Counted from the stretch's first letter, positions 30,836-58,193 are shown. The stretch: 64,000 nucleotides of DNA from Syntrophomonas sp. (GCA_016841425.1 JAENZE010000015.1:14032-78031); one strand, 5' to 3'. Notes: generated by a model not told the origin, from the letters alone. Translations and numbers: made by a program.

Positions 30836-30888
30836 ATTTATAAGGCAAAGTCCATATGCTTTAGAAATATTTTTGAGGAGGATAAAGA

Positions 30889-31722: not shown

Positions 31723-31804
31723 TTCTAAGTACTTTCACAAGCAGAAGAATAATATGCACCAAGTAACAAGGCGAAATATTTAAGGAAAGGCAGGAAATTT
31801 TTAT

Positions 31805-32965: not shown

Positions 32966-32984
32966 ATGGAGAGGAGAGAGTCAC

Positions 32985-34307: not shown

Positions 34308-34708
34308 TTGTTGGGAACTTACAAATAAAATCCTTATTCAAATAATGATATGCAGCCATCTCGAAAATGTATGGTTGTGATCGCTTGGTCCACCAGGAGT
34401 TTAATCTGAAGACGGGGATAGGTTTCCTATCTGGGAAAATAATATATACAGAATTTATTGATTAAACGGACCAAATTAAATTTGAGGGAGAGGGGTGAGA
34501 GACGTTCACAAATCAATGCGATGTAAAATACCTGCTAACGGTAAATAAAGGAGGGATACACCAATAAATGGAGGTTATCGCTAATAATACAACTAGAGCC
34601 CGGTAGGGCAGGATATAAGTTAAGAGCGTAGCAAGTATTGAAATTCGAAATTGGTTTGCTTTGAATCAGGATAGGGTTCGCTGAAAAATGAAAGGGAGGA
34701 AGCTATCT

Positions 34709-36064
34709 ATGGAGAGAACTGTAACTCAGGAATTAGCCCGGTTTGCTGTAAATCTTAAATACGAGGACATTCCCCTTAATGTAATAGACAAGGTGAAAAC
34801 CTGTATTTTGCATGGTACTTGTATCGGCCTGGCAGGAATGGATATTATATTTGGCAAAATTGCCCGGGCTCAGATCAGTAAAGCTCCCACTGCAATTGGA
34901 AATGGGTCTGTAACACTCCTTGGAGATGGTGCCAAGGTAGCAGTCATGGATGCAGCCTTTGCCACCAGTGTTTTGTATCATGGCAGGGTTCAGGAAGATA
35001 CCCATGGCACAACTCATATAGGAGCTATCAGCATTCCTCTGGCAATTGCCCTCGCCGAAATGAACGGTCAGACTGGAAAGGATGTTATTACTGCCCTTGC
35101 CGCAGCCTACGAGGTAGGAGGTGCACTGGGCAAAGATTACACTGCCCTGACAACTCCCAGAGGGTGGAGAGCCAGCTCTATTTATGGCATTTTTAGTGCT
35201 GCCACCGTTGCCGGTGTTTTAATGGGACTTAATGAAGAGGAGATGACTAATGCATTAGGCCTGGCCAGTGCATTTGCATTTGGAACTACGGAGAGTTTTA
35301 AAGCCGCAACTATGGAATGGCGGTTCGAAGTTGGACTGGCCGCAAGAAATGGTTATCTGGCAGCAGTATTGGCCAAAGAGGGTGCACTAGCCGCGGCTAA
35401 TGCAATGGAAGGCGACATGGGTTTCTTCAGAGCTTTTGCGGGAACTCGTGAGAACCTTGATAAGATCACCGAAAATCTCGGCAAGGTGTGGGAGACCAAC
35501 AACGTAACCTTCAAGCTTTATCCGGTGTGTGCATTCAACCAGACCCAGGTTATAAACAGCATCTCATTGGCGTCAGAAAATGACCTTGATCCGGCTAAGA
35601 TTACTTCAATAGAAGTTAATATGAGTGAATATGAGGCTAATTATCCCGGGCAGATGAATTGGGGCCCCTTTTCTGCCCATGCCGGAACATTAATGAGCGC
35701 ACCGTTTTGTGTAGCAGCTTCCTTATTAAATAGAAGATTGACTTTATCTGATCTGCATCAGTTTGAGGATTCTACTATTCTGGAGCTGGTCAACAAAACC
35801 AAAATAATTCCCAATCCCGAAATTGGATTCCTTTGTTCACGCATTGTGGTTACCCTGGAAGATGGAACGGTAGTAGAACGTCCTATGAATGTTACAGAAC
35901 AGTACTATAATTTGGATTTTGCCAGGGATGTTGAAATGATGAGGACTATGAAGGACGAAATTGCAATTTCGGATGAGAAATTGGAAGATCTTATCGCTAT
36001 TGTAGGCACTCTAGAACAGCAAGAAAACATGAACGCATTTGTCAATGCAACACTAGTAGATTAA
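34709..36064 (+). CDS. MmgE/PrpD family protein (2-methylcitrate dehydratase superfamily, specificity unknown)
   Basis: N-terminal ELARFAVNLKYEDIP, and a length and layout typical of PrpD-family proteins. ATG follows GGGAGGAAG. Confidence 0.8.
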   Translation: MERTVTQELARFAVNLKYEDIPLNVIDKVKTCILHGTCIGLAGMDIIFGKIARAQISKAPTAIGNGSVTLLGDGAKVAVMDAAFATSVLYHGRVQEDTHGTTHIGAISIPLAIALAEMNGQTGKDVITALAAAYEVGGALGKDYTALTTPRGWRASSIYGIFSAATVAGVLMGLNEEEMTNALGLASAFAFGTTESFKAATMEWRFEVGLAARNGYLAAVLAKEGALAAANAMEGDMGFFRAFAGTRENLDKITENLGKVWETNNVTFKLYPVCAFNQTQVINSISLASENDLDPAKITSIEVNMSEYEANYPGQMNWGPFSAHAGTLMSAPFCVAASLLNRRLTLSDLHQFEDSTILELVNKTKIIPNPEIGFLCSRIVVTLEDGTVVERPMNVTEQYYNLDFARDVEMMRTMKDEIAISDEKLEDLIAIVGTLEQQENMNAFVNATLVD

Positions 36065-36107
36065 TATGGGTCAGGTTCCTGAAATAGCTTGGTAGGAGTG
36101 ATAACTT

Positions 36108-36635
36108 GTGGGTTTGTATCAATTTGAAAACTATGTACCCAGGGTCGACTCATCGGCATACGTTCATCCGGAGGCAGTACTAATTGGTGATGTCAGTATC
36201 TCCAGGAATTGTTATATTGGACCGGGTGCATCGATACGGGCTGATTGGGGGAGCATCACTATAGGACCGGGTTCTAATATTCAGGACCGAGTTGTTATTC
36301 ACGTTAAACCAGAACACTCAGTAATCCTTGGAGCTAATTCACACATTGGACATGGTGCTATCCTGCATGGACCATCTCTGGGATTCCATGTTTTTATAGG
36401 CATGGGTGCCATCATAATGGACGGAGCAGAATTGGGTGACAATTGCTGCATAGCTGCAGGGACTCTTATCCCTGGTGGAATGAAAATACCAGCTAACAAA
36501 CTTGTTAAAGGCGTTCCCGGCAGGATTGTTTCAGACGTATCCTTGGAAATGGCGGCAGCATTAGAAACAGCAACAAAGCACTATCAAACCCTGACTGAAC
36601 GGTGCCTTAAGGGAATGAGAAGAGTCAACTTTTAG
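36108..36635 (+). CDS. gamma-carbonic-anhydrase-like / PaaY-CaiE hexapeptide-repeat protein
   Basis: Left-handed beta-helix repeats. The N-terminus YVHPEAVLIGDVSI resembles PaaY/CaiE. GTG start 9 nt after AGGAG. Confidence 0.75.
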   Translation: MGLYQFENYVPRVDSSAYVHPEAVLIGDVSISRNCYIGPGASIRADWGSITIGPGSNIQDRVVIHVKPEHSVILGANSHIGHGAILHGPSLGFHVFIGMGAIIMDGAELGDNCCIAAGTLIPGGMKIPANKLVKGVPGRIVSDVSLEMAAALETATKHYQTLTERCLKGMRRVNF

Positions 36636-36690
36636 TTAAACAGTTGGTGGGGAATTAATAATATTGTTATTTATAGAGGAGGTTTTACAT

Positions 36691-38022
36691 TTGTCTACTA
36701 AAGTTGCGGAAAAAGCTTGGGGATATCGCCACATAATACTGCTGGTAGTATGGGGATTATATCTGATAAATTACCTGGATAGGATAGCAGTTCTGACATT
36801 TCTGCCTTATATTAAAGAAGATCTAAACCTAACTACGGTTCAGGTCGGGTGGTTAGGATCAATATTCTTCTTTGGATATGCTTTAGCCCAATTTTCAGCA
36901 GGTTTCTTAAGTGATAAAATTGGTGCTAAAAAAACCATGGGCATTGCCATAACGGTCTTCACTGGAGTTACCTTTTTGACTGGTTTAGTTCAGAATTTCA
37001 CACAATTCATTATACTGCGTCTTGGTCTGGCTCTGGGTGAAGGTCACCATTATACCCCTGCAATTAGAGCACTTGCCGACTGGATGCCTAACCATGAGAA
37101 AGGAAGAGCCAGTGGTTTCTTTGCTACTGTTTTTGGATTCGCTCCTATGCTGACTCCATTAATAGTAACCTCTATTGCAGTCGCATGGTTTGGTGGTGCA
37201 TGGAGACCGGTATTCTTCTGCCTGGCAGTACCCGGTGTTATTGGAATATTCATACTTTGGAAGTTTATGCATAATACACCGAGCGAAGGACTTGCGAAAG
37301 GCGTTGTAAGACAAGGCGAATACGATATGATCGTAGATTCTATTGGCCAGGATCAAAAAATCACTGGTGTTAACTACAGTACCAAATTGATCTTTGGAGA
37401 TAGTAAATTTTATTTATATTCCATTGCCTGGTTCATGCAGCTGATGATTTACTGGGGAATGACCACCTGGGTGGCATTTTTCCTGGTAACTGCGCATGGA
37501 TTTAATATCAAAACTATGGGTATCCTGGCAGGTGTTCCCTACGCTGCCGCCATTTTGGCCCAATTTTTGGGTGGGATTGTTGCGGATAAATGGTTCCAGG
37601 GACGCCCCCGCATTGTCTGCGTTATAGCTTTCCTGGGCTGCATCCCATCTCTGTATTTCCTGGGTCAGGTGCCCTCGGGCAGCATAACTCCATTGGTAAT
37701 ACTGTTGGCACTTTGCGGGTTCTTCATTAACTTCAACTGGGGTGTTATCCAGTCATATCCTTCTTATAGATATCCCAGAGAAATCGTAGGACGCGCTATG
37801 GGTATTGCCAACGGGGTTGGTCAGTTTGGTTCCTTTGTTTCCCCTATGATTGCTTCATACCTGATCATTACCAATGCCGCTGGTGTTAGTGACTTTTCCC
37901 GGGTTTTCTTCTTCTGGGCAATAGCTGCAGCAGTAGCAGCAACCGCATTCTTCTTCCTGAAGGAAGAAGCTATCGATGCAGAACCATACAAAATTGTTAG
38001 CGAGAAGAAATTAGCTTCCTAA
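36691..38022 (+). CDS. MFS transporter (anion:cation symporter-like)
   Basis: 12 TM segments and a DRIAVLTFLP ... SDKIGAKKT loop motif. TTG 36691 follows GAGGAGG. Confidence 0.8.
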   Translation: MSTKVAEKAWGYRHIILLVVWGLYLINYLDRIAVLTFLPYIKEDLNLTTVQVGWLGSIFFFGYALAQFSAGFLSDKIGAKKTMGIAITVFTGVTFLTGLVQNFTQFIILRLGLALGEGHHYTPAIRALADWMPNHEKGRASGFFATVFGFAPMLTPLIVTSIAVAWFGGAWRPVFFCLAVPGVIGIFILWKFMHNTPSEGLAKGVVRQGEYDMIVDSIGQDQKITGVNYSTKLIFGDSKFYLYSIAWFMQLMIYWGMTTWVAFFLVTAHGFNIKTMGILAGVPYAAAILAQFLGGIVADKWFQGRPRIVCVIAFLGCIPSLYFLGQVPSGSITPLVILLALCGFFINFNWGVIQSYPSYRYPREIVGRAMGIANGVGQFGSFVSPMIASYLIITNAAGVSDFSRVFFFWAIAAAVAATAFFFLKEEAIDAEPYKIVSEKKLAS

Positions 38023-38042
38023 ACGCAGTTTGATATCCTGTT

Positions 38043-38090
38043 ATGTATTGTGCAGCTAAAAGTGCTGCACAATACATATCTTTGTATTTA
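38043..38090 (+). terminator. rho-independent terminator ending operon 1
   Basis: Perfect 14-bp stem ATGTATTGTGCAGC / GCTGCACAATACAT followed by a T-rich tail. Confidence 0.8.
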
Positions 38091-38358: not shown

Positions 38359-38472
38359 CAGTAATAATTATCATTCTAGAATAAACTTATTTTGCTTGTA
38401 AATTGACGGAATAGCTGTAATATTATAATTAAATGTCGATTGTTGAAAACAGGTATTAAGCGGGGTGGAAAA

Positions 38473-40503
38473 ATGCTAAGTGCTATTGATTTTAGGGATG
38501 CTACCTACCCAACATTTACTCCAGATGTACCAGTATATGAAGCAATAGACATACTAAGTGATGTAAATGAATCAATTGGGTTTGTTGTTCAGGATGGCAA
38601 ACATTTAGGAACCTTCAGGCTGACAAGGAATAAAATTGAACAACTACCAGCTAACTCTCGTGTTTCCGATATCATTATTCGTAATTATCCTACCATTTTA
38701 CCAGATACCCCCATTTACCAGCTCGGTTTAAAGAGTCTGCTTCCGGTGCCTCTTGTGAGTGCGCAGGGATTTTTCTATGGGGTAATCCAACCTGCTACAG
38801 TATTTTCCTTCTTTCAGATGTTTGGTGCAACACAATACGGAGAAATTCATAATCAACTGAGCGTTGGGGTGATCTTTGAAAGTGCGGAAGGATTAATCAC
38901 ACAGATCAACAGCACGGCCATTAAACTGCTTGGTGTTGAAGCTAAAGATGTTCTGTTTCAACCTCTAGCCCAGGTTATTCCAGAAGTCGATCATGATGAA
39001 TTGTGCAAGATACGAAAAAATATACAGAGGCATGGAAAGGTAATTGATCTGAAAAGAAATATGGTGGAATTAAAAGGGCGTCAAATAGGATGGATGACTT
39101 TATTGGAGGACATCTCCAGCCTGGTTAATGTTACAGCTGAGCTGTCAGGTTTCCATAATCTCACGGAGGAGATTGAAACAATTTTTCGGTATGCCAGTGA
39201 AGGACTGTGTATAATCAATAATAATGGCGTGATTTTGAAGAGTAATGATGCTTTATGTAATGTTATGGGAGCGCCTCAAGATCATATTGAAAATCGACAT
39301 GTAAAAGAATTGAAAATGGATGGAATTATTGATAAATCGATTGCTGAGACAGTATTATCTAAAAAAGCCGAAGTAACCATCACCCAAAAATCAAAAAAGC
39401 AAAATCAATGGTTAACTACTGGAAGGCCAGTTTTTAATAAAGAAGGGAATATAATCTATGTAGTTTCAACTGCCAGAGACGTAATTAAGACGAATAGAAT
39501 GTATCGAGCGGCCGGGGTAAAGCGGGATAAGTACACGTTTCTTGACATTGAAACCAGGCAGGTACTTGATAAGGTTGGCATCATAGGTGAAAGCAAAAGT
39601 ATGTCCAACATTATAGGTGTGGTTTCCCGAATTGCTAATTCTTCCGCAACAGTACTTATTCAAGGTGAGTCTGGTACGGGGAAAGAATTGATTGCCAGGC
39701 TCATTTATGAACTAAGCGACAGGAGATTCGGTGGAAAATTTATAGGCGTGAACTGTGGAGCCTTGCCCAGAGAACTTCTGGAGGCTGAACTCTTCGGATA
39801 TGTGGGAGGAGCTTTTACCGGTTCCAAAAAAGAAGGTAAAAAAGGCCTTTTTGAACAAGCCAACAAAGGGACGATATTCCTGGATGAAATCGGTGATATG
39901 CCTTATGACTTACAGGTTAAACTTTTGAAAGCCGTTGAATATGGGGAAATCGCCAAGGTTGGAAGTGCTGAAACGATAAAGGTAGATACCAGAATCATTG
40001 CTGCTACCAATCAAAATTTACAGAGTATGGTTGCCGATGGAACCTTCCGGGAAGATCTTTTTTATCGGCTCAATGTAATCCCCATATTTGTACCGCCGTT
40101 AAGGGAGCGGCGAGAAGATATAGTAAGCCTGTACGCTTACTTCATTGATATGTTTAACAAAAAGTATAATAGCGACAAAGAGTTTTCTGTTAGAGCTCAA
40201 AATATACTGCAGAACTATAAATGGCCCGGAAATATCCGGGAAATGAAGAATCTGGTAGAAAGGTTGGTTCTTACAACGGAAGCTGATATTATATGTGAGG
40301 AAGATTTACCGATTCAAATACTTGAGACACGGGAAATCTTTGAAAAACAACCAGAATGCTCGCTGAGGCAAGCAATGGAAGATGTTGAACGTCGTATTAT
40401 TTTAGATGCCTACAATCGTTATGGCAGCACTTATAAGGTTGCCGAGGCATTGGATATCAGTCAAACATCCGTTGTTCGAAAACTGAATAAATATCTTCAA
40501 TAG
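38473..40503 (+). CDS. sigma-54-dependent transcriptional activator (CBS pair, two PAS, AAA+ sigma-54 interaction domain, Fis-type HTH)
   Basis: Walker A GESGTGKE, a GAFTGS sigma-54 contact loop, Walker B FLDEIG and a C-terminal HTH (STYKVAEALDISQTSVVRKL). Confidence 0.9.
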   Translation: MLSAIDFRDATYPTFTPDVPVYEAIDILSDVNESIGFVVQDGKHLGTFRLTRNKIEQLPANSRVSDIIIRNYPTILPDTPIYQLGLKSLLPVPLVSAQGFFYGVIQPATVFSFFQMFGATQYGEIHNQLSVGVIFESAEGLITQINSTAIKLLGVEAKDVLFQPLAQVIPEVDHDELCKIRKNIQRHGKVIDLKRNMVELKGRQIGWMTLLEDISSLVNVTAELSGFHNLTEEIETIFRYASEGLCIINNNGVILKSNDALCNVMGAPQDHIENRHVKELKMDGIIDKSIAETVLSKKAEVTITQKSKKQNQWLTTGRPVFNKEGNIIYVVSTARDVIKTNRMYRAAGVKRDKYTFLDIETRQVLDKVGIIGESKSMSNIIGVVSRIANSSATVLIQGESGTGKELIARLIYELSDRRFGGKFIGVNCGALPRELLEAELFGYVGGAFTGSKKEGKKGLFEQANKGTIFLDEIGDMPYDLQVKLLKAVEYGEIAKVGSAETIKVDTRIIAATNQNLQSMVADGTFREDLFYRLNVIPIFVPPLRERREDIVSLYAYFIDMFNKKYNSDKEFSVRAQNILQNYKWPGNIREMKNLVERLVLTTEADIICEEDLPIQILETREIFEKQPECSLRQAMEDVERRIILDAYNRYGSTYKVAEALDISQTSVVRKLNKYLQ

Positions 40504-40549: not shown

Positions 40550-41365
40550 TTAAATAATACTGTGCCAGGTATGGTTAATTTTCTTAGCCAGGCCAATCCT
40601 ATCCATATTTATAATATTAATGTTTTTTTCTGATTTTTCAATTAACACCCGTTCCTCTTTGTTCAGGCAACGGATATTTTCTCCATCCAGGGATATATCT
40701 GTAGTAAATTCACAGTATGAGGATATGGTCACTTGAGTGTCTGAATTTACTATCAGAGCTCGGCCAGAGGACAAGAGGGGACAAATAGGTGTGAGAACCA
40801 GCGCTTTAACATTTTCAGCCAGCACCGGACCACCTGCTGAATATGAATAAGCTGTTGATCCGGCAGGTGTTGCGCAGATCAGTCCATCCCCCCTATAGAT
40901 GGAGCAGGTCTGATTATCGATGGAAATACCTATGGTGATTGGACGCACGGCCTTAGATCTAATAACCACCTCGTTAAGAGCCACACCCAACTCTACCCGC
41001 TGCCCTCCGCTTATAAGCTCAGCCTTAATCAGTAGGTATTTATCGAGAGTATATTGAAACTTTATGAGTTTGTCCAAAGCCATTGACCAATCATCTGGTT
41101 CTATGCTGCTTAAAAATCCAATTTTACCCAGATTAACTCCTAATAGAGGAATTCCCGTCCCGGCCAGGTGATGGGCAGTTTTTAGAATAGTTCCATCTCC
41201 CCCTAAAACTAAAATTATATCATTACTGCTAAGATCGATATGGTCACTTATTTTACGACTTTCCAAGGCAGATACTATAGCTCCTTTATCTGCCAGGTCT
41301 TCACTAAAACGCTGGCTCAGTTGATATGCTCGTAAGTCGCTTTTATGGATTATCAAGACTTTCAC
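40550..41365 (-). CDS. nadK: NAD kinase
   Basis: GGDGT motif, the NE...I region and the ATPAGSTAYSYSAGGP motif. GTG start. Confidence 0.9.
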   Translation of the reverse strand: MKVLIIHKSDLRAYQLSQRFSEDLADKGAIVSALESRKISDHIDLSSNDIILVLGGDGTILKTAHHLAGTGIPLLGVNLGKIGFLSSIEPDDWSMALDKLIKFQYTLDKYLLIKAELISGGQRVELGVALNEVVIRSKAVRPITIGISIDNQTCSIYRGDGLICATPAGSTAYSYSAGGPVLAENVKALVLTPICPLLSSGRALIVNSDTQVTISSYCEFTTDISLDGENIRCLNKEERVLIEKSEKNINIINMDRIGLAKKINHTWHSII

Positions 41366-41888
41366 GATTAAACACCTTTCTTTATATCCATTTTTATTTA
41401 CCGATAATGACTTAGGAGGTTCGGTATGATTAAAATCTTAATAATTGTTTCTGTTTATTGGATGTGCAATAAATGTGCCAATCCCAATGATTGAAGGTCT
41501 GCACAACTGCTTTATATTCGAGGTCCAAGCAGGGGGTTTTATCAGATATCTGCTTGGAGCATACCCGGCGAGGATCATTCTATTAGTCTGCACCTATGAT
41601 TAGGAAAGAGGGAAATACAGGTTCTTATGAAGTAACCCAAAAACGACTTGGGCCGAAAAAGCACGAATCTTTGGGAGTTTAGACAATATTAAGGATAAGT
41701 TGATCAGTTAGCAAACCGACTTTGACTCGGTACCGAAACTTAAAAATAGATTTTCATCTCCTCTCTGTTGTTGATGAGAATAACCTGCAAATCAAACAGA
41801 TTATGAAAGGCCCGTAAAAGGCTATTTATAGGGAAAGTCATGAAAGAGTGAGGACTGTTTTTACTGCAGTTTTCACTCTTTTTGGATT

Positions 41889-41904
41889 TGGCATAGTATT
41901 TGCA
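41889..41904 (+). promoter_or_regulatory. sigma-54 promoter (-24/-12), operon 2
   Basis: The same TGGCATAGTATTTGCA, extended to an identical 21-mer, lies 53 nt upstream of ATG 41957. Confidence 0.85.
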
Positions 41905-41956
41905 ATTTAAAGTACAAGAGAGCGACTACAGTAAAAAACGCAGAAAGGAGCCAGTC

Positions 41957-42925
41957 ATGAAAGATATCAGGTATATATTCGCTATTAAGGAGGCCATGCA
42001 AGAAGAAATGGAGAGAGACGAAAACGTTTTTCTCATGGGTGAAGATGTAGGTCTTGCAGGCGGGTCATTTGGAGCAAGTAAGGGTCTTTTTGAGAAATTT
42101 GGAGAGAAAAGGGTCATTGATACTCCCATCAGTGAGGCCGGTTTTACATCATTGGCGGCAGGAGCCGCATCCTGTGGGCTAAGGCCGATTATTGAGATTA
42201 TGTTCATGGATTTCGTTACCTGTTGTATGGACAGCGTGGTCAACCAAATTGCTAAGATGCGTTATATGTTTGGAAATCAATATGCTATGCCAATCGTTGT
42301 AAGAATGCCAGAAGGAGGCGGGCAAAACGCAGGCCCACAGCATTCCCAGTGTTTAGAAGCCTGGTTTGCACATGTGCCGGGGCTTAAAGTGGTTATGGCT
42401 GCCAACCCTTATGATGTAAAAGGGCTTCTTAAATCGTCTATTCGCGATGATAACCCGGTTATTTTTATCGAAAATAAGACCCTGCATGCTATGAAAGGTC
42501 AGATTCCGGAAGAAGATTATCTGATTCCCCTTGGTAAAGCGGATGTAAAAAGAGTGGGTAGTGATGTAACTGTTGTCACAGCATCGCGCCTGGTAAACGA
42601 TTCGCTAAAAGCTGCAGAACAGCTTGAGAAAGAGGGTATTAGTGTTGAGGTTGTAGATCTTATGACTATTCAGCCCTGGGATAGGGAAACTGTTTTTGAT
42701 TCGATAGGAAAGACTCACCGATTGGTGGTAGCGCACGAGGCAGTTAAACAGTTTGGGTTCGGAGCCGAGATATCAGCAGCTGTCAATGAAGAATTGTTTG
42801 ACGAATTGGATGCTCCAATTTTCAGGGTAGGTGCACCCTTTGTTCCGATTCATTACAGTCTTGAGAAAGCTTATGTGCCGGGAGTTGAAGATATTAAAAA
42901 AGCTGTCATAGCTGCTATGGGGTAA
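41957..42925 (+). CDS. thiamine-diphosphate-dependent dehydrogenase E1 component, beta subunit (acetoin / 2-oxoacid dehydrogenase type)
   Basis: Transketolase-like pyrimidine-binding and C-terminal domains (GEDVG ... DTPISE ...). ATG follows AAGGAG. Confidence 0.85.
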   Translation: MKDIRYIFAIKEAMQEEMERDENVFLMGEDVGLAGGSFGASKGLFEKFGEKRVIDTPISEAGFTSLAAGAASCGLRPIIEIMFMDFVTCCMDSVVNQIAKMRYMFGNQYAMPIVVRMPEGGGQNAGPQHSQCLEAWFAHVPGLKVVMAANPYDVKGLLKSSIRDDNPVIFIENKTLHAMKGQIPEEDYLIPLGKADVKRVGSDVTVVTASRLVNDSLKAAEQLEKEGISVEVVDLMTIQPWDRETVFDSIGKTHRLVVAHEAVKQFGFGAEISAAVNEELFDELDAPIFRVGAPFVPIHYSLEKAYVPGVEDIKKAVIAAMG

Positions 42926-42963
42926 GTCTCTGTATATTAGGAGAATATTAGGAGGTAATAATA

Positions 42964-44016
42964 ATGAAAGCTGCCGTTTGGTATGGTAAGGAAGACGTCA
43001 GAATAGAAAATTATCCTGAACCCTCGGTGGAAAAAGGACAGGTTAAACTCAAGATAAAAGCTTGTGGTATCTGTGGGTCAGATCTACATGAGTACAAAGA
43101 TGGCCCCTTCGTTATTCCCGCCAGACCTCACCCCCTAACCGGAAGGGCACTGGGACCAGTTGTAGTAGGACACGAATTTGCCGGTGAGGTAGTTGAGATT
43201 GGTGAAGGCGTGACAAACTGCAAAGTCGGAGATCGGGTTACTGTAAATCCTTTAGTATATTGTGGTGAATGTCACTATTGTAAAAAAGGCGAGTATATCA
43301 TGTGTACCAAGCTAGGTACAGCAGGATTCGCCTGCGATGGCGGTTTTGCTGAGTATGGAGTTTTCCCGGAATACGGAATACACAAACTGCCAGATTCAGT
43401 CAGTGATGACGTGGGGTGCTTTGTCGAACCTGTAGCTGTTGCACTGCATGCCGTTAATCGGAGTCGTATGAAGGTTGGAGCTAGTGTGGCGGTAATCGGA
43501 GCAGGACCCATAGGGCTATTAGTATTGCAATGCTGTCTGGCAGCTGGTGCCAAGGAGGTTTTTGTCAGTGAACCCATGCAGGCGCGGCGTGAATTGGCAG
43601 CCAAATTGGGCGCAACAGCGGTCTTTGATCCTACCCAATGCGATGTAGGAAAAGAGATCGGCAAGTATACCGATGGTCTTAAAGCGGATTGGGTTTTTGA
43701 ATGCGTAGGAAACCAGATCACTTTTGATACAGCGGTTAAGGTAGGCGGCAGAAGAGCAATCATTTGTATTGTAGGCCTGGCATTAAAACCCATCGAAGTG
43801 CCGTTCTTACGCTTATGGGGACAAGAAAAGGAGATAGTATTTTCTTCAGGTTATAATGATGAGTTTCCCACCTGCATAAGTTATCTAGCTGACGGTAGGG
43901 TGAAGGTGGAAGAAATGATAACGGCCAGGATTGGTTTGGATGACTATGTGGAAAAGGGAGTTAAGGAACTTATCAATAATGGGGACCAGCAAATTAAAAT
44001 ACTGGTCACCATGTAA
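42964..44016 (+). CDS. zinc-dependent medium-chain alcohol/polyol dehydrogenase (butanediol/sorbitol dehydrogenase-like)
   Basis: GICGSDLH, GHEFAGEV, a structural-zinc Cys cluster (CGECHYCKKGEYIMC) and GAGPIGL. Confidence 0.85.
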   Translation: MKAAVWYGKEDVRIENYPEPSVEKGQVKLKIKACGICGSDLHEYKDGPFVIPARPHPLTGRALGPVVVGHEFAGEVVEIGEGVTNCKVGDRVTVNPLVYCGECHYCKKGEYIMCTKLGTAGFACDGGFAEYGVFPEYGIHKLPDSVSDDVGCFVEPVAVALHAVNRSRMKVGASVAVIGAGPIGLLVLQCCLAAGAKEVFVSEPMQARRELAAKLGATAVFDPTQCDVGKEIGKYTDGLKADWVFECVGNQITFDTAVKVGGRRAIICIVGLALKPIEVPFLRLWGQEKEIVFSSGYNDEFPTCISYLADGRVKVEEMITARIGLDDYVEKGVKELINNGDQQIKILVTM

Positions 44017-44114
44017 AAACAAATAAAATCTATCCAGCTTTGTTGTCCAGATCATCCAATCATATGCAAGACTGACTAATGATACAACTTAGCTGGTTGG
44101 AGAGGAGGAAGGCC

Positions 44115-44897
44115 ATGAAAGCATATAAAACAATCATTGTAGAAAAAAAGGAAGGCATCGGTATTCTAACTCTTAATCGTCCCGAGGTTTTCAATGCCAT
44201 TAGTCAGGAATTAATCGATGAAATGCGAGATGCATTGCGGAATATAAATCTGGATGATGAAATAAAGGTTCTCATTATAACTGGTGCCGGCAAGGGATTC
44301 CAGGCTGGAGCCGATATCAAGGAATTGAGTGAAATGGCTCCTATAAATATACTTCGTTGGAATGAAGGACTGGTAAGAGTTATAGCAGCATTAGAGAAGT
44401 TAAGACAACCTGTTATCGCAGCGATTAATGGCTTGGCTCTGGGTGGCGGACTTGAACTTGCTTTAGGATGCCAGATTCGTATTGCAGTTACTGGAGCCAA
44501 ACTCGGACTTCCCGAGGTTAAGCTTGGCATAATACCGGGAACGGGTGGAACACAGCGACTTCCACGGATCATTGGAAAAGGTCTGGCTTATCAAATGCTG
44601 CTGACTGGTGATCCTATAGATGCTGAGGAAGGATTACGCATCGGCTTAATCAACAAGGTAGTTCCTAAAGGGGAAGTACTGAAGGCAGCAGAAGAGATGG
44701 CTCAAAAGATCGTATGCAATGGTCCGATAGCCCTGGAACTCTGCAAGGACGCAGTTGAGATTGGTATGGATTTGCCTCTGGAACAAGCCGTACAGTATTC
44801 CCAGAAGAATTGCGTAACCTGTTTTAGCACGGAAGACATGAAAGAGGGGACCACTGCCTTCATTGAGAAACGTAAAGCCGAGTTTAAGGGAAAATAA
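44115..44897 (+). CDS. enoyl-CoA hydratase/isomerase (crotonase) family protein
   Basis: The GAGKGFQAGADI oxyanion motif and the GGGLELALGCQIRIA plus PEVKLGIIPG motifs. Confidence 0.9.
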   Translation: MKAYKTIIVEKKEGIGILTLNRPEVFNAISQELIDEMRDALRNINLDDEIKVLIITGAGKGFQAGADIKELSEMAPINILRWNEGLVRVIAALEKLRQPVIAAINGLALGGGLELALGCQIRIAVTGAKLGLPEVKLGIIPGTGGTQRLPRIIGKGLAYQMLLTGDPIDAEEGLRIGLINKVVPKGEVLKAAEEMAQKIVCNGPIALELCKDAVEIGMDLPLEQAVQYSQKNCVTCFSTEDMKEGTTAFIEKRKAEFKGK

Positions 44898-44916
44898 TAG
44901 TAAAGGAGTAAAACAA

Positions 44917-46170
44917 ATGCCTATAAATATCGTAATGCCTAAATTAGGTTTAACCATGGAAGAAGGATTAATTACGGAATGGGTTAAGAAAGAAGGCGAT
45001 TCCGTTACCAAGGGCGATATCCTTTTTATCATGGAAACAGAGAAGATTACTCAGGAGGTTGAAGCCCCTCAGGATGGTATATTAGCCAAAATAGTAGCAC
45101 AGGCACAGGAAACAGTTCCGGTTGGTGAAACAGTAGCTTATATGCTGGAACCCGGAGAAGATCCTGCCAGTATTCCAGCTGCGGGCGCAGCACAAGCAGT
45201 AAGTGCAGCTGTAGAAGAAAAACCAACGATAATCGAAAATATACCCCAGAATCAGTCTGCAGCGGGTGCGGGTTCCAGAATTAAAGCTAGTCCGCTGGCC
45301 AGGAAAATAGCTAAATCCTATAATCTGGATCTATCTCAAGTTATAGGAACAGGTCCCTCAGGCAGAATCGTTGCAGCAGACGTTGAAAAAGCTTACGAGT
45401 CAGGAACATTAACACCTGCAGCATCTGCAGCAGCGGCACCAATGGCAACTACACCAGCTGAGTCTGATGTTGAGCTTGAGGCTGGACAAACCCTGGTTCC
45501 TTTCACCGGTATGCGGAAGGCTATAGCAAAGAATATGCTCGCCAGCAAGCATGAGGCAGCTTCGACTTATATGTACAATACGGTGGATGCCAGCAAGATC
45601 CAGGAAATGCGTGAAACACTATTGCCTTATGTGGAGAAAAAGTATGGTGTACGTATCACTGTTACAGATTTGATGATGAAAATTACAGCTATTGCACTTC
45701 GCGAACATCCGGTTCTCAATACCCGCTGGACTGAAAAAGGGATCATCTATAATTCTAAAGTGAATATGGGTATGGCAATGGCTCTTGACGAAGGATTAAT
45801 CGTGCTTTCTATTAAGGATATAAACTCCAAGAGTATAGGACAGATAGCATCAGACAGAGTTGCTTTAATTAATAAGGGTAAAACTAATAGCTTTGGCCCG
45901 GACGATATATCAGGCAGTACCTTTACGCTGTCATCATTAGGCATGACCGGCCTGGAGCAATTTGTAAGCATTATCAATCAGCCGGAAAATGCCATTTTAG
46001 CAGTAGCGGCCATCATTGATAAACCGGTTGTGGTTGACGGTGAGATCGTGATCCGGCCTATGATGAATGTCAATCTGACCTATGATCACAGGGTGATCGA
46101 TGGGGCAGAAGCAGCCAAGTTTATGATGACCCTTAAAGAGTATATCGAAAATCCGATATTGGCTGTGTAA
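44917..46170 (+). CDS. dihydrolipoamide acyltransferase E2 component
   Basis: Lipoyl domain (METEKITQEVEAP), an Ala/Pro linker, a peripheral subunit-binding domain (ASPLARKIA) and a catalytic DHRVIDG. Confidence 0.9.
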   Translation: MPINIVMPKLGLTMEEGLITEWVKKEGDSVTKGDILFIMETEKITQEVEAPQDGILAKIVAQAQETVPVGETVAYMLEPGEDPASIPAAGAAQAVSAAVEEKPTIIENIPQNQSAAGAGSRIKASPLARKIAKSYNLDLSQVIGTGPSGRIVAADVEKAYESGTLTPAASAAAAPMATTPAESDVELEAGQTLVPFTGMRKAIAKNMLASKHEAASTYMYNTVDASKIQEMRETLLPYVEKKYGVRITVTDLMMKITAIALREHPVLNTRWTEKGIIYNSKVNMGMAMALDEGLIVLSIKDINSKSIGQIASDRVALINKGKTNSFGPDDISGSTFTLSSLGMTGLEQFVSIINQPENAILAVAAIIDKPVVVDGEIVIRPMMNVNLTYDHRVIDGAEAAKFMMTLKEYIENPILAV

Positions 46171-46259
46171 ACAACATTAATCTCATTAAAATTCCATAAT
46201 AAGTTGAGGTCAATTCTTGAAGGGAAGGAATTTAATGAAATGTGCTTAGGAGGATGGAA

Positions 46260-47642
46260 ATGTCTGAAAAAACTAAGATAATAATCGTTGGCGGTGGTGT
46301 AGGAGGATATCCTGCTGCCATACGGGCGGCTCGCATGGGTGCAGAAGTAACATTGATTGAAAGGGCTGACCTCGGGGGGACATGCTTAAACCGTGGTTGT
46401 ATACCGACTAAAGCACTTTTGCAGGCTGGCAATGTAATTGAGACCATGAAAGAATCCGAACTATATGGTATCAAGTGTAAGGGTTACGAGTTGAATTTTG
46501 GTGCCGCTATGGCCAGGAAAGACGCGGTTGTGTCGCAGTTATGTAATGGAGTTAAATCTTTGCTGGGAGCCAAGAAGGTAAAGGTTATTAAGGGAACCGC
46601 TTCGTTTGTTGATGCCAAGACATTACAGATAGCAGAAACCGGGGAAAAAGTTAAAGGAGATAAAATCATCATCGCATCAGGATCTATTCCATCCAAAATT
46701 CCCATCGAAGGAATAGATCATCCCGATGTAATGGACTCAGATAAGGTGCTGGAGATGGCGGCCCTGCCAAATAGTGTGGTTATTATCGGAGGAGGCGTAA
46801 TAGGAGTTGAATTTGCCCAGTATCTTAACTCCATGGGATGTGCTGTAACCATTATTGAAATGATGCCTCATCTGGTATTCGGCGTGGATAAGGAAATCGC
46901 AGAACTTCTGCAAAAACTGGTTGTTAAATCTGGAATTAAAGTGATTACCAGTGCATCGGTAAAGAGTATAGCTCACAAAAAGGCGGAGAATATTGTAACT
47001 TATGCTGTGGGAGACAAAACCAAGACTGTAAGTGCTGAAAAAGTAATTCTAACGGTAGGAAGAAAGCCAGACTTTTCACTTCTTAATATTGAAAAGATTG
47101 GCGTGAAGACTGAAAAAGGCGCTATAGTAGTTAACGATTACATGGAGACCAATGTCCCCAACGTATATGCCGTAGGCGATGTGATCGGCGGTATAATGCT
47201 GGCACATCTAGCATCTGCCGAAGGTGAATGCGCGGTTCACAATGCTCTGGGCGAGAAACAAGCCATGAAGTATAAAGCAGTTCCTGCCTGTATATATACA
47301 ACTCCTGAGGTAGCTTCAGTCGGGCTTACGGAAGAAAAAGCCCGGGAGTCTTATGATATACAAGTGGGTCGTTTTCCGATGCGGGGTGTCGGTAAGGCCC
47401 TGGTTGTAAACGAAGTTGATGGGATGGTCAAGATTGTGGCCGATAAGAAATATGGTGAAGTATTAGGAGTTCATATAATTGGTCCTCATGCAACAGATAT
47501 GATTGCAGAAGCAGTACTGGGAATGAACATGGAAATGACGGTTGAAGAACTGGCTCATACCATTCATCCCCATCCGACTATATCAGAGGCTGTTATGGAA
47601 GCCGCCTTGACGCTATGCGGTGGTGCCATTCATATGCCATAA
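46260..47642 (+). CDS. lpd: dihydrolipoyl dehydrogenase E3
   Basis: GGGVGGYPAA FAD fold, the redox disulfide GGTCLNRGCIPTK and a C-terminal HPHPT interface motif. Confidence 0.9.
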   Translation: MSEKTKIIIVGGGVGGYPAAIRAARMGAEVTLIERADLGGTCLNRGCIPTKALLQAGNVIETMKESELYGIKCKGYELNFGAAMARKDAVVSQLCNGVKSLLGAKKVKVIKGTASFVDAKTLQIAETGEKVKGDKIIIASGSIPSKIPIEGIDHPDVMDSDKVLEMAALPNSVVIIGGGVIGVEFAQYLNSMGCAVTIIEMMPHLVFGVDKEIAELLQKLVVKSGIKVITSASVKSIAHKKAENIVTYAVGDKTKTVSAEKVILTVGRKPDFSLLNIEKIGVKTEKGAIVVNDYMETNVPNVYAVGDVIGGIMLAHLASAEGECAVHNALGEKQAMKYKAVPACIYTTPEVASVGLTEEKARESYDIQVGRFPMRGVGKALVVNEVDGMVKIVADKKYGEVLGVHIIGPHATDMIAEAVLGMNMEMTVEELAHTIHPHPTISEAVMEAALTLCGGAIHMP

Positions 47643-47820
47643 GAATCAACTAGATTCTAAATAGATAATAATAGCAAAGAGCGACATTGTATAACGGTAG
47701 GTATCCTTGATCTTATATTTGTTATAGAGCAAATCTAGAATGGGTGCCTATCAAATAGCAACACAAGTGAGAGTATCGAAACAACAGGATTGTATATGCA
47801 AAATGGAAGGAGAATATTTC

Positions 47821-48780
47821 ATGAAGAAGCTTAGCAATGAACAGTTAATTGAATTCTACAAAAATATGCTAAGAATTCGGAGAACAGAAGAAAAATTAAT
47901 GGAAGTCTTTTCGGCCGGTGAGATTCAAGGTTTTCTCCATGTAAGTGTGGGGCAGGAATCAGCACCGGTGGCAATATGTGCCAACCTCAACGATGATGAT
48001 TATATCGGCACTACCCACCGGGGTCATGGTTATGCAATTGCCAAAGGAATCGACCTGAATCGAGCAATGGCTGAATTGTTTGGCAGAAAGGCAGGTTATT
48101 GCATGGGCAGGTCAGGTTCTATGCATTTAGCTGACCTTTCGAAGGGTGTTATGGGTGCTAATGGTATCGTGGGTGGTGGAATACCTATCGTAGTTGGAGC
48201 AGGCTTTGCAGCTAAATACAAAGGAACCACACAAGTAGCGGTATCTACTTTTGGTGACGGTGCTACCAATGAAGGAGCTTTCCATGAAGCTATGAATCTG
48301 GCCGCAGTCCTAAATCTGCCGGTAATCTTCCTTTGTGAGAATAACGGGTGGGCAGAATTTTCACCAAGACCAATCCATTGCAAAATTGAAAATCTGGCTG
48401 ATCGGGCTGCTTCTTATGGTATTCCGGGAGTAATCGTCAGCAACGATGTAATAGAAATTTATCAGGCTTGTGCTGAAGCAGTTGCACGGGCACGTGCTGG
48501 TGAAGGACCAACCTTTATTGAAGTTAAAAATGATCGCTGGCATGGACATTTCGTAGGAGATGCCCAAAAATACCGGGGTAAAGAAAACGTCGATATTGCC
48601 ATGACAAAAGACTGTATAAAGGATTTAGAGACCTTGCTGTTAAAAGAAAAAGCCCTGAAGAAACAAGATGTTGAAAATATTGAAAACTCAATTGCAGCTG
48701 AATTAGATTCTGCAGTTGCTTACGCACGCGAATGTGCTTATCCAGACCCATCTGAGATGGCAGACGGACTATACGTATAA
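47821..48780 (+). CDS. thiamine-diphosphate-dependent dehydrogenase E1 component, alpha subunit
   Basis: ThDP-binding GDGATNEG ... NN motif. ATG 47821 follows GGAAGGAG. Separated from E1-beta by four genes. Confidence 0.85.
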   Translation: MKKLSNEQLIEFYKNMLRIRRTEEKLMEVFSAGEIQGFLHVSVGQESAPVAICANLNDDDYIGTTHRGHGYAIAKGIDLNRAMAELFGRKAGYCMGRSGSMHLADLSKGVMGANGIVGGGIPIVVGAGFAAKYKGTTQVAVSTFGDGATNEGAFHEAMNLAAVLNLPVIFLCENNGWAEFSPRPIHCKIENLADRAASYGIPGVIVSNDVIEIYQACAEAVARARAGEGPTFIEVKNDRWHGHFVGDAQKYRGKENVDIAMTKDCIKDLETLLLKEKALKKQDVENIENSIAAELDSAVAYARECAYPDPSEMADGLYV

Positions 48781-48828
48781 GACATCACCCCCCTGGTGAC
48801 CGGAAGAGAGTAATCCATAACGGATAAT

Positions 48829-48870
48829 GGCAGGCCGGAATAGGAGCACCGGCTTGCCTGCCTTTCCGGT
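48829..48870 (+). terminator. probable terminator of operon 2
   Basis: GGCAGGCCGG ... CCGGCTTGCCTGCC imperfect stem followed by TTTCCGGTTT. Confidence 0.45.
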
Positions 48871-49328
48871 TTGGGCTTGGCAGTAAAGAGAGACGATTTT
48901 ATGGTTAAGCTTTTGAGCTGTTAATAATGAATTCAACCAGCATAGCAACAATGGTAAAGGAAATACAGGCAAAACTTGATCAAAATACCCACTATGCCGT
49001 ACAGGTTAGAAATGGTATGGATAAGGCAAATAAGTATGTAGAGCATCAAAACCGGGTAACTCAAGAGATAGCAGAAGCTTGTGTACATTTGGAATCTACA
49101 TCTTTAAAGGTGTTTTCAATGGCCAAAGAAATGGTGATTTATAGTTAATAGCATAGTAATAGAGTATAGGGGTTTGAGCCTTATTTATGGATTAATCAAC
49201 AAATGATAATGCTTGGTATGAACATATTAGTTTATTAGTATATGGTATCACAGTCTATCGGACTCAAAGTTTGCTAACGAAAAATCGAACTGCTTATTTC
49301 TATAACGAATGCAAAAGGGTGGAATGGG

Positions 49329-50312
49329 ATGATCAGAATAATTAATAACTCTCGGGATCCTTATTATAATCTTGCCCTGGAGGAGTATGTCGTTACAGCA
49401 ATGCCGGAGGGAGAAGATTATTTTATTCTATGGCAAAATGAGCCCACGATCGTAGTGGGAAGAAACCAGAACACTATCGAAGAAATAAACCTTGCTTTCG
49501 TAGAGCGCAGGGGCATCAAAGTGGTAAGAAGAATGTCGGGCGGAGGTGCAGTATATCACGATCATGGTAACCTTAACTATACATTTGTAGTTCAGGAAGA
49601 AGGGCGTTTTCATAAATTTGATGTTTTCACCCGTTATTTAATAGATACTCTTAGAAAGTTAGGAATTCAAGCGGAGAATAGCGGTAGAAATGATATAACT
49701 ATTAATGGCAGAAAATTTTCCGGTAATGCACAGTTTAAACGTGGAAAACGGCTGCTTCATCATGGGACTATTCTCTTTAATTCGAGTTTAGATGTCATGG
49801 TTGAGGCTTTAAATGTTAATCCGGAAAAAATAATATCCAAAGGGATAAAATCGGTCAAAAGCCGTGTAACCAATATAAAGGAGCATCTGAACATGCCGCT
49901 GGATATCATTGAGTTTAAAGAACTCTTATATGCAACAGTGTTTGAAGCTGAGAACGAGATCTCAACGTATTATTTATCTGATACAGATCAGAAAGCGATA
50001 TCCAATTTGAGAAATACTAAATATGACTCCTGGGATTGGGTTTTTGGCAGCTCACCACCTTTTACTGTTCAGAAAAAAGGTGGCTTTGATTGGGGCAATA
50101 TCGATATTAGGCTGAGTATAAACCAGGGATATATCACTGAATGCAAAATATACGGCGATTTCTTTGCAGCACAGGATATAGAAGGACTTGAAATGAGATT
50201 TGCAGGACTGGCTTATAGAAAAGATGTTTTTCATAAGAATATTACCTCAGAGATCATAACAGCCTACTGGCCATCTGCAAAAGTTGATGAGATAATACAG
50301 CTTCTATTTTGA
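49329..50312 (+). CDS. lplA: lipoate-protein ligase A
   Basis: The RRMSGGGAVYHDHGN motif and the GRKFSGNAQ lysine motif. Full length of about 327 aa. Confidence 0.9.
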   Translation: MIRIINNSRDPYYNLALEEYVVTAMPEGEDYFILWQNEPTIVVGRNQNTIEEINLAFVERRGIKVVRRMSGGGAVYHDHGNLNYTFVVQEEGRFHKFDVFTRYLIDTLRKLGIQAENSGRNDITINGRKFSGNAQFKRGKRLLHHGTILFNSSLDVMVEALNVNPEKIISKGIKSVKSRVTNIKEHLNMPLDIIEFKELLYATVFEAENEISTYYLSDTDQKAISNLRNTKYDSWDWVFGSSPPFTVQKKGGFDWGNIDIRLSINQGYITECKIYGDFFAAQDIEGLEMRFAGLAYRKDVFHKNITSEIITAYWPSAKVDEIIQLLF

Positions 50313-50366: not shown

Positions 50367-51113
50367 ATGGATAGTGCAATTAAAGGATTAGACGATCTCG
50401 ATAACCATAGGCTGTCTGAATTAATAATAAATATGTTTCATCAGATCATGGTTCATCATACCATATACTTTTTGGAGGTAGAACATCAATTTGGTATGCC
50501 CAATGCACTCGAGATTATGGGACAGGTATTTCCTCAGAGTTACAGTGCACAGATGAAACGATTAGGAAAAACGCTGGGAATAGAAATGGAGGATTCTGTT
50601 CCTAAGGCTTTAATAGATATGCCCAGGGAGCAGTTGCTGGCATTAATCAAGTCTTTAGGCTCAAACTGGTTAGCGGGCGACGGTATCTGGTTTCAGGCTG
50701 TTGAACAAAACTACAGTGTTTTGGATGCGCAGCGTTGCGCGGGTGGTGCAGTAGGGAAATTTTGTGCTTTTGAAGCAAGTTCAATTAAGAAGTTTTTAGG
50801 TCTGCCGGAATTAGCTGGATTAGAAGGTCTTAAACAGGCACTTAAATTCAGACTATATCATCAGGTTAATGTGCAGTCTATTATTGATGAAAGCCCGAAT
50901 AGCATCATTTTTTATATGAATGAATGTGTTGTACAAACTACAAGAAAACGCAAAGGTCTAGATGACTATCCCTGCAAATCAACTGGAATGATGGAATATA
51001 GATCTTTTGCTTCTGCAATCGATCATCGAATTATAACGGAATGTTTAGGCTGTCCACCAGATTCTCATCCCGAGGAATGGTATTGCGCCTGGCGGTTTTC
51101 TATTGTCCCTTAA
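50367..51113 (+). CDS. hypothetical protein with a Cys-containing C-terminus (possibly DUF6125-like)
   Basis: Good RBS (GGGGGGA). No confident family. The C-terminal pattern C...C...CxxC...C suggests metal binding. Confidence 0.45.
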   Translation: MDSAIKGLDDLDNHRLSELIINMFHQIMVHHTIYFLEVEHQFGMPNALEIMGQVFPQSYSAQMKRLGKTLGIEMEDSVPKALIDMPREQLLALIKSLGSNWLAGDGIWFQAVEQNYSVLDAQRCAGGAVGKFCAFEASSIKKFLGLPELAGLEGLKQALKFRLYHQVNVQSIIDESPNSIIFYMNECVVQTTRKRKGLDDYPCKSTGMMEYRSFASAIDHRIITECLGCPPDSHPEEWYCAWRFSIVP

Positions 51114-57795: not shown

Positions 57796-57807
57796 AGGAG
57801 GGTGTTT

Positions 57808-58161: not shown

Positions 58162-58193
58162 TATACAAATCCTACTATAGAGGGGTAATGCAA

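Follow-up and report, generated by a model that had tools for sequence, protein, structure and literature searches.

The DNA analysed here, a stretch of 64,000 nucleotides (nt) from Syntrophomonas sp. (GCA_016841425.1 JAENZE010000015.1:14032-78031) referred to below as the window, carries at 41.9-48.8 kb a predicted operon for an enzyme complex of the acetoin dehydrogenase (Aco) and pyruvate dehydrogenase (PDH) kind, in which genes for an alcohol dehydrogenase (ADH) and a crotonase are embedded. Six long open reading frames (ORFs), each with domain matches at very low E-values, follow one another on the plus strand as E1beta, Zn-ADH, crotonase, E2, E3 and E1alpha, the order already read in a preliminary description made from the sequence alone. 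Four of the start codons were reset from Shine-Dalgarno context and homologue lengths.

41634..41730, plus strand: sequence blocks common to this promoter region and that at 30820, found by sequence comparison; candidate activator-binding sites
41889..41904, plus strand: sigma-54 -24/-12 promoter TGGCATAGTATTTGCA of the E1beta-to-E1alpha operon, predicted by pattern scan
41957..42925, plus strand: E1beta, the E1 beta subunit, 322 amino acids (aa) (Transket_pyr, E 1e-45; Transketolase_C, E 1e-40)
42964..44016, plus strand: Zn-dependent medium-chain ADH, butanediol-dehydrogenase-like, 350 aa (ADH_N and ADH_zinc_N)
44115..44897, plus strand: crotonase, a short-chain enoyl-coenzyme A (CoA) hydratase, 260 aa (ECH_1, E 1.6e-67)
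44917..46170, plus strand: E2 dihydrolipoyl acyltransferase (lipoyl, E3-binding and catalytic domains; DHRVIDG)
46260..47642, plus strand: E3 dihydrolipoyl dehydrogenase, 460 aa (TIGR01350, 547 bits, above cut-off)
47643..47820, plus strand: E3-E1alpha spacer of 178 nt, the longest gap in the operon
47821..48780, plus strand: E1alpha, the E1 alpha subunit, 319 aa, moved to the operon end (E1_dh, E 2.6e-76)
48829..48872, plus strand: GC-rich hairpin (48829-48858) with an interrupted U-run, seen on folding and not called by the terminator scan

The heteromeric thiamine diphosphate (TPP) E1 with its alpha and beta subunits, the lipoyl-bearing E2 and the E3 are all encoded, as read from Pfam and NCBIfam domains and from motifs. 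E1beta begins at ATG 41957, the TTG at 41900 having been discarded; position 41889, where the preliminary description placed the start of the system, falls in the non-coding sigma-54 box. The catalytic Glu pair of the crotonase (start 44115), the lipoyl-Lys and DHRVIDG motifs of E2 (start 44917), the CLNRGC and HPHPT motifs of E3 (start 46260) and the GDG...NN motif of E1alpha (start 47821) are intact, and both the catalytic and the structural Zn motif of the ADH can be read. The 319 aa of E1alpha are the length of nearly all 120 homologues among the matches listed; an exact-sequence look-up of this protein gave no record. In a Syntrophomonas metagenome-assembled genome (MAG; loci L001/L005, comparison loci being numbered with an L throughout) the order is the same and the six operon proteins are 91-98% identical. 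E1beta is 98% identical to that of the Syntrophomonas MAG and about 80% to those of deltaproteobacterial MAGs, which rules out a foreign replacement copy of this subunit. Comparison with L001 yielded ratios of nonsynonymous to synonymous substitution (dN/dS) of 0.02-0.14 over the six genes, indicating strong purifying selection. By these measures the E1/E2/E3 complex specified by the operon is complete, belongs to the aco/PDH-type lineage and is maintained by selection.

The odd gene order and the long spacer ahead of E1alpha might be taken as marks of a broken operon, in which a decaying or separately used E1alpha would leave the complex unmade. This is highly improbable, given that every frame and catalytic motif is intact, that E1alpha, with a dN/dS of 0.036, is as constrained as its neighbours, and that four distinct genomes, with 82-96% identity in E1alpha, retain the order. 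A good Shine-Dalgarno site also precedes E1alpha, and in L090 the junction between E3 and E1alpha shrinks to 55 nt.

The promoter box stands out from its background, since the sigma-54 pattern TGGCAN6TTGCW matches seven times in the 64-kb window against 0.47 expected. The 16-mer TGGCATAGTATTTGCA recurs base for base about 65 nt before E1beta in L001, L090 and L091, and again within the window at 30820-30835, heading a second operon about 11 kb upstream. Blocks such as AACCCAnAAAnGACTTG and AAACCGA...TGACT are conserved about 140-255 nt upstream of both promoters. A simple common activator-site motif, AACCSAN5GACT, was not borne out: exact matches occur at the two promoter regions and nowhere else, and with one mismatch allowed there is no enrichment.

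Shine-Dalgarno sites were found ahead of every gene, lplA included, as the preliminary description had it; its picture of uniformly short gaps does not hold, the intervals being in order 38, 98, 19, 89 and 178 nt. Pattern and terminator scans of the last of these found no sigma-54 box, no other promoter and no terminator, and as far as can be read from the DNA E1alpha is not independently driven. A regulatory RNA in this spacer was considered and dismissed (fold z -1.2; the sole hairpin is broken by an 8-nt deletion in L001). Downstream, the hairpin at 48829 is tentatively taken as the operon end, beyond which lie two further features.

48927-49150: small ORF between E1alpha and lplA
49329..50312, plus strand: lplA, lipoate-protein ligase (TIGR00545, 423 bits, above cut-off), 548 nt past E1alpha

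In the closest relative a 273-aa gene with an MCP-signal domain occupies the place of the small ORF. Although lplA does follow E1alpha, as first described, it does not belong to the same tight operon, because 548 nt, the GC-rich hairpin and the small ORF intervene; on this evidence it is a neighbour, a separate unit. We take the region from 41889 to about 48870, with borders that are themselves predictions, as a single putative sigma-54-dependent operon.

Related loci were gathered by an ADH scan of species-representative genomes (one genome per species), a crotonase scan of metagenomes and E1 homologue look-ups, and all were mapped by tblastn; the locus counts rest on pattern-seeded scans and many short contigs. 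This survey revealed a cassette with the order E1alpha-E1beta-ADH-(SDR)-crotonase-E2-E3, where SDR is a short-chain dehydrogenase/reductase, at 31 distinct loci in MAGs of Deltaproteobacteria and in unassigned metagenome contigs, to which the window proteins are 45-85% (E1alpha), 58-92% (E1beta), 49-86% (ADH) and 54-86% (crotonase) identical. A crotonase of at least 54% or an ADH of at least 55% identity always had the same cassette neighbours where the contig was long enough, and nearly all cassette loci that extend over the relevant position contain the crotonase. Downstream of the block there are usually two acyl-CoA dehydrogenases with a weak likeness to PimC/PimD (acyl-CoA dehydrogenases were found in 29 cassette loci), then a family III CoA-transferase or an AMP-ligase and a Cys-rich protein without a Pfam family, with a LipB-like protein and LipA further downstream. 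A TetR regulator often stands ahead of the cassette and a divergent pair, a major facilitator superfamily (MFS) transporter and a DUF6125 protein, often lies upstream; a PrpD-like protein occurs in about five loci, and MFS-ACS, TRAP or ABC carboxylate-type transporters recur nearby. Neither a thiolase nor an aldehyde dehydrogenase is among the conserved cassette neighbours.

The named hosts are MAGs of Desulfobacterales, Syntrophaceae including Smithella, Desulfomonilia and Desulfatiglandaceae. In the species-representative scan all loci with an ADH of at least 55% identity came from MAGs, and no cultured cassette-bearing strain was identified. One further locus, L017 (Schekmanbacteria), gave no functional clue, and a literature search found no paper or curated model covering the cassette. 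Judging from these genomes, the cassette is widespread among anaerobes, conserved and undescribed so far. Two side observations concern its accessory genes. The Cys-rich protein, about 255 aa long, is encoded next after the CoA-transferase or ligase, in L094 (16417-17205) and in eight further cassette loci; it bears the motifs DPCGSGGR, YYCxHCA and PCxW, matches nothing in Pfam or NCBIfam and has no counterpart in the window. Genes for a HadBC-like 2-hydroxyacyl-CoA dehydratase are cassette-linked in two unrelated lineages (L088 6726-9943; L003 4738-7118); in the L003 group they belong to a neighbouring operon that also encodes a TRAP transporter, another crotonase and a CoA ligase.

More distant ADH homologues, 41-50% identical, occur in Acetobacterium, Desulfosporosinus and Desulfococcus beside sigma-54 activators and E1alpha-E1beta-E2-E3 genes of the usual kind, in what look like ordinary butanediol/acetoin loci. 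The loci of this kind in acetogens and Desulfosporosinus (L021-L028, L050, L060) hold the closest non-cassette homologues (ADH 44-50%, E1alpha 43-48%, E1beta 52-56%) and have an adjacent sigma-54 activator. Their E1alpha and E1beta genes are adjacent, the ADH gene is placed apart from the E1-E2-E3 block, and neither a crotonase nor an acyl-CoA dehydrogenase homologue occurs within 10 kb. The butanediol/acetoin operon of Acetobacterium woodii has reportedly been characterised.

Among loci showing both E1 genes, E1alpha directly precedes E1beta in the 31 distinct cassette loci and in 20 distinct classic loci, 51 in all; E1beta comes first and E1alpha last in four alone, all of the Syntrophomonas type (the window, L001, L090 and L088). 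The arrangement is therefore as unusual as was first supposed, and the synteny survey turned up no characterised system that shares it. In an E1alpha tree built by neighbour joining and rooted by its one outgroup, human PDH E1alpha, the cassette sequences, the window's included, form a clade (bootstrap 100/100) apart from the butanediol-linked aco loci. Within it the four rotated loci are monophyletic (100/100) and nest (100/100) beside a group with the canonical order. The tree thus gave the cassette a place of its own, and did not settle how it groups with AcoA/AcoB as against PdhA/B and BkdA/B: no experimentally characterised AcoA was included, and the classic loci bootstrap as one clade in 29/100.

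Because the rotated loci are one clade nested beside a canonical-order group, the move of E1alpha is, on this tree, a derived, single, recent and lineage-specific event. The G+C content of the canonical-order sister group is 52-65%, against 41-46% in the rotated loci, and the Syntrophomonas lineage probably acquired the cassette by transfer. The window order is the canonical one rotated by exactly one gene. Such a rotation is what would result from a tandem duplication whose outer copies were then lost, which we offer as an idea; tblastn of E1alpha, E1beta and the dehydratase against the sequence ahead of E1beta, the E3-E1alpha junction and the sequence past E1alpha in five loci found no significant remnants. 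At the E3-E1alpha junction L088 holds genes for the HadBC-like dehydratase and its activase. There is no sign in the sequence that the relocation of E1alpha has a functional consequence, and it would be a neutral rearrangement and no regulatory device. The embedding of ADH and crotonase and the move of E1alpha are, by the same comparison, two independent oddities, the embedding being old and widespread.

The cassette's accessory functions are present in the window as well, divided between the second operon and a gene downstream of lplA.

30820..38078, plus strand: second operon, headed by the identical sigma-54 16-mer (30820-30835) and closed by a strong terminator (38042-38078)
30889-31722, plus strand: SDR, second operon
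31805-32965, plus strand: acyl-CoA dehydrogenase, AcrC/Bcd-like, second operon
32946-34307, plus strand: CoA-transferase, butyryl-CoA:acetate family, second operon
34688-36064, plus strand: PrpD/MmgE-like protein, second operon
36108-36635, plus strand: PaaY/CaiE-like hexapeptide protein, second operon
36664-38022, plus strand: MFS anion transporter, second operon
38440..40503, plus strand: sigma-54 enhancer-binding protein, AcoR-like in role (domains PAS-PAS-AAA+-HTH, weak CBS match)
40550..41365, minus strand: NAD-kinase-family protein, AcoX-like by family and position, with its own sigma-54 box at 41465-41480 (minus strand)
50367..51113, plus strand: DUF6125 protein, a recurrent cassette neighbour with a V4R/Bet3-like ligand-binding fold and invariant Cys/His
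52688-53458, minus strand: metallo-beta-lactamase (MBL)-fold protein, sigma-54 box at 53538-53553

As the gene content indicates, the E1beta-to-E1alpha operon is half of a system to which the second operon adds an SDR, an acyl-CoA dehydrogenase, a CoA-transferase and a transporter. The activator gene between the two operons is kept in L001 and L090, and its product presumably switches both on. The window's MFS and DUF6125 proteins are 56-58% and 43-51% identical to those of canonical loci; its acyl-CoA dehydrogenase and CoA-transferase belong to other subfamilies than the canonical cassette's. Acetoin dehydrogenase clusters typically include acoX, for whose product an NAD kinase function is predicted (PMC9676059, PMC3543383). 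The MBL-fold gene is kept in L001 and L090, and L088 has a different MBL-fold gene with weak lactonase-type matches. Curated models gave no match for the window's PrpD-like, MBL or DUF6125 proteins.

Several observations on this neighbourhood stand on their own. A confident structure model of DUF6125 (window, and L171 8001-8747), with a pLDDT (predicted local distance difference test) of 91, resembles, weakly, the ligand-binding folds of Bet3/TRAPP, V4R (the phenol sensors PoxR/MopR/DmpR) and H-NOX and no others, which makes it unlikely that the protein is a missing enzyme of the pathway. Five Cys and one His are invariant, suggesting a metal site, and in Desulforamulus reducens the gene lies in a sigma-54 operon adjoining a CBS-PAS-PAS activator and an operon for a B12 acyl-CoA mutase and a crotonase; the modelled protein may act by itself as a ligand sensor in acyl-CoA pathways. 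Facing the DUF6125 gene in convergent orientation is a candidate sigma-54-dependent small RNA (51596-51482, minus strand), whose box TGGCATACAAATTGCA (51596-51581) is followed after about 65 nt by a perfect intrinsic terminator (51516-51482). Its last 75 nt or so, terminator included, are near-identical in L001, where the flanks diverge and a 66-nt insertion lies just past the promoter. The candidate carries an anti-Shine-Dalgarno-like CUCUUCCUUUU and had no Rfam match. Directly upstream of the SDR operon and divergent from it, an NfnAB-like pair (DHODB-FeS/NAD-binding, 29339-30205; Fer4_20 and Pyr_redox_2, 27945-29372) and a C_GCAxxG_C_C protein occupy 27219-30205 on the minus strand; together with the sigma-54-driven NAD kinase, this pair hints at NADP(H) in the pathway. 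Farther away the window contains, within 56419-59749, an oxaloacetate-decarboxylase (OAD)-type alpha subunit (HMGL-like and PYC_OADA); the near-identical MAG locus L001 has OAD alpha, then OAD gamma, a biotinyl carrier and OAD beta, whose presumed counterparts in the window are the ORFs at 57802-59749. A cyclic di-GMP-I riboswitch (RF01051, 69 bits against a gathering threshold of 35) lies at 62517-62600 on the plus strand, upstream of an ORF at 62751-63551.

The closest known system is acoABCL with acoR, acoX and acoS/lipB, as in Pelobacter carbinolicus, Clostridium magnum and Bacillus subtilis. Common to both are the heteromeric TPP E1alpha/E1beta, the lipoyl-E2 and E3, control by a sigma-54 activator and promoter, the acoX-like gene (a likeness of family and position), linked lipoylation genes and a linked butanediol-type dehydrogenase. 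An aco-type heritage is supported by the nearest non-cassette homologues of E1alpha, E1beta and the ADH, all in butanediol/aco loci carrying sigma-54 activators; for the E1 subunits these are also the nearest homologues with an identifiable context (43-56% identity). In place of acoA-acoB-acoC-acoL, however, the window has beta-ADH-crotonase-E2-E3-alpha, and the cassette at large, unlike aco, links acyl-CoA dehydrogenases, CoA-activating enzymes, carboxylate transporters and DUF6125.

Much of this resemblance would also be expected if the locus served plain 2,3-butanediol/acetoin catabolism, the ADH and SDR making acetoin and the complex splitting it to acetyl-CoA and acetaldehyde. The nearest solved structure to the ADH is an (R,R)-butanediol dehydrogenase (6ie0, 256 bits), the SDRs score near the meso-butanediol dehydrogenase BudC models (about 200-210 bits), and the AcoX-like gene, sigma-54 control and lipoylation genes are those of aco clusters. 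The remaining enzymes (crotonase, SDR, acyl-CoA dehydrogenase, CoA-transferase) would then form an attached C4 branch, either a butyrate electron sink by reverse beta-oxidation or a route for removing 3-hydroxybutyryl-CoA formed from acetyl-CoA and acetaldehyde. The crotonase indeed lies closest to Crt (5z7r) and 3-hydroxypropionyl-CoA dehydratase (5zai) among solved structures, its non-cassette relatives adjoin genes of the Bcd/AcrC-type acyl-CoA dehydrogenase and CoA-transferase families, and the window's own acyl-CoA dehydrogenase and CoA-transferase resemble Bcd/AcrC and butyryl-CoA:acetate CoA-transferase. Acyl-CoA-active genes are, moreover, found inside a genuine aco cluster, that of P. 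carbinolicus, for which removal of 3-hydroxybutyryl-CoA was proposed (PMC3543383). Yet no homologue of the crotonase lies within about 10 kb in classic butanediol/aco loci, whereas here this gene has a fixed place between ADH and E2. The E1alpha of the cassette forms its separate, fully supported clade; the recurring carboxylate transporters and CoA-activating enzymes would be needless for neutral acetoin or butanediol, and the aldehyde dehydrogenase that acetaldehyde would call for is not conserved. We therefore regard plain acetoin catabolism as rather unlikely. The shared cassette neighbours, the E1alpha clade and the lack of a crotonase in classic loci uphold the preliminary view that the embedded ADH and crotonase mark more than a plain acetoin system, and its logic for the substrate, a diol or hydroxyketone entering and the acyl-CoA product being processed further, is plausible from gene content. 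The complex is best described as one that would work in the aco manner and belongs to a distinct conserved cassette, with acetoin cleavage itself predicted at most.

The E1 and E2 subunits raise the alternative of a 2-oxoacid dehydrogenase complex, like PDH or the branched-chain enzyme (BCKDH). In this case the ADH or SDR would oxidise an imported 2-hydroxy acid, the complex would decarboxylate the product, and acyl-CoA dehydrogenase, crotonase and SDR would beta-oxidise the resulting acyl-CoA, with a Had-type 2-hydroxyacyl-CoA dehydratase route running parallel in some lineages. The best curated models for E1alpha, E1beta and E2 are of the PDH type. No PDH or BCKDH equivalog model reached its cut-off for the operon subunits (E1alpha, 319 bits against 394 for TIGR03182; E2, 312 against 445), and the PDH-type subfamily model for E1beta alone passed (383 bits against 321). 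The best solved relative of E1alpha is human PDH at 177 bits, ahead of two BCKDH E1alpha structures at 146 and 108; by these figures the window E1 is nearer to the aco-/PDH-type than to BCKDH.

This alternative gives a simple account of the acyl-CoA dehydrogenase, crotonase and SDR, and it gains from the HadBC-like dehydratase and activase inside the L088 operon and from the dehydratase beside L003-type cassettes. Operons of the had type contain a family III CoA-transferase and acyl-CoA dehydrogenases, as do cassette loci. The bkd operon of Bacillus subtilis, under sigma-54/BkdR control, offers a regulatory precedent, and bkd operons resemble the window in that E1alpha-beta/E2/E3 are followed by acyl-CoA dehydrogenase, hydratase and dehydrogenase chemistry. 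They differ from it in that the window has a butanediol-dehydrogenase-like ADH and an AcoX-like gene. The ADH is, besides, of the butanediol/threonine/sorbitol dehydrogenase type and not of the 2-hydroxyacid dehydrogenase type, the nearest homologues with a recognisable context lie in aco/butanediol loci and not in pdh or bkd, and a CoA ligase or transferase would be superfluous if E2 made the thioester. A 2-oxoacid complex is, on balance, unlikely.

We propose that the window operon is the Syntrophomonas version of a cassette in which an acetoin-type TPP/lipoamide complex cleaves carbon-carbon bonds within acyl-CoA, beta-oxidation-like chemistry, probably for a carboxylic acid, a reading to which we give about half a chance of being right. 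The crotonase fixed inside the block suggests a substrate handled as a CoA ester, and a carboxylic acid is further suggested by the linked acyl-CoA dehydrogenases and CoA-activating enzymes (CoA-transferase or AMP-ligase), by the recurring MFS-ACS, TRAP or ABC transporters and by the absence of a conserved thiolase or aldehyde dehydrogenase nearby. An organic acid would be imported and activated with CoA, after which the acyl-CoA dehydrogenase would desaturate it and the crotonase hydrate it. Oxidation by ADH or SDR would then place a hydroxyl and a carbonyl on neighbouring carbons, forming an acyloin, whose bond E1 would split as acetoin dehydrogenase splits that of acetoin. E2 would hand the acyl half to CoA, E3 with NAD+ would regenerate the lipoamide, and the complex would thereby take the carbon-carbon cleavage role of thiolase in ordinary beta-oxidation. 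The second fragment would be worked up by the same set of crotonase, dehydrogenase and CoA-transferase. The accessory genes would have moved, in the Syntrophomonas lineage, into the second operon under an identical promoter.

Several points weigh against this proposal. We know of no biochemical precedent for the step on an acyloin carried by an acyl-CoA, and neither the ADH nor the crotonase nor E1 has a curated family model above cut-off, E1beta passing at subfamily level alone. For the end of the operon behind E1alpha the evidence is a hairpin that was not among the terminators predicted by the scan. In its accessory genes the cassette varies from lineage to lineage, in CoA-transferase (family III versus acetyl-CoA-hydrolase-type), acyl-CoA dehydrogenase (two PimCD-like versus one Bcd/AcrC-like) and control (TetR versus sigma-54), and one common pathway is therefore an assumption. 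Finally, the 2-hydroxyacyl-CoA dehydratase inside L088 and beside the L003 group fits 2-hydroxy/2-oxo acids as well or better.

In a more specific form, the proposal would amount to a thiolase-independent beta-oxidation acting on an acyloin borne by an acyl-CoA, for example 3-hydroxy-4-oxoacyl-CoA derived from 4-oxo or 4-hydroxy acids (levulinate, 4-hydroxyvalerate, gamma-lactones). Cleavage would yield acetyl-CoA and a formyl-acyl-CoA, which ADH/SDR, crotonase and acyl-CoA dehydrogenase would convert to propionyl-CoA. This version is doubtful, and we think it quite unlikely to be correct as it stands. The levulinate (lva) pathway of Pseudomonas putida and 4-hydroxy-acid catabolism bypass a beta-oxidation blocked by the 4-oxo or 4-hydroxy group, lvaR encoding a sigma-54 activator. 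That is the same kind of problem that acyloin cleavage would solve, and the likeness is a functional analogy: lva proceeds by a kinase and phospho-elimination and has no TPP or lipoamide complex.

NAD-linked complexes of the 2-oxoacid/acetoin type are unusual in strict anaerobes, and the cassette is carried by Syntrophomonas, Smithella and other Syntrophales, Desulfobacterales and Desulfomonilia from digesters, groundwater, sediments and hydrocarbon-degrading cultures, organisms that control the flow of carbon to methane. The identity of its substrate would fill a gap in models of the anaerobic carbon cycle, and the cassette might reveal a new use of TPP/lipoamide chemistry within acyl-CoA metabolism. 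Were the 4-oxo/4-hydroxy acid version true, it would add a new reaction class to this family of enzymes and give anaerobes a new way of using acids on which normal beta-oxidation stalls. The rotation by one gene, with all genes under selection, is a clean natural case in which the adjacency of E1 subunit genes appears as a habit and not a requirement.

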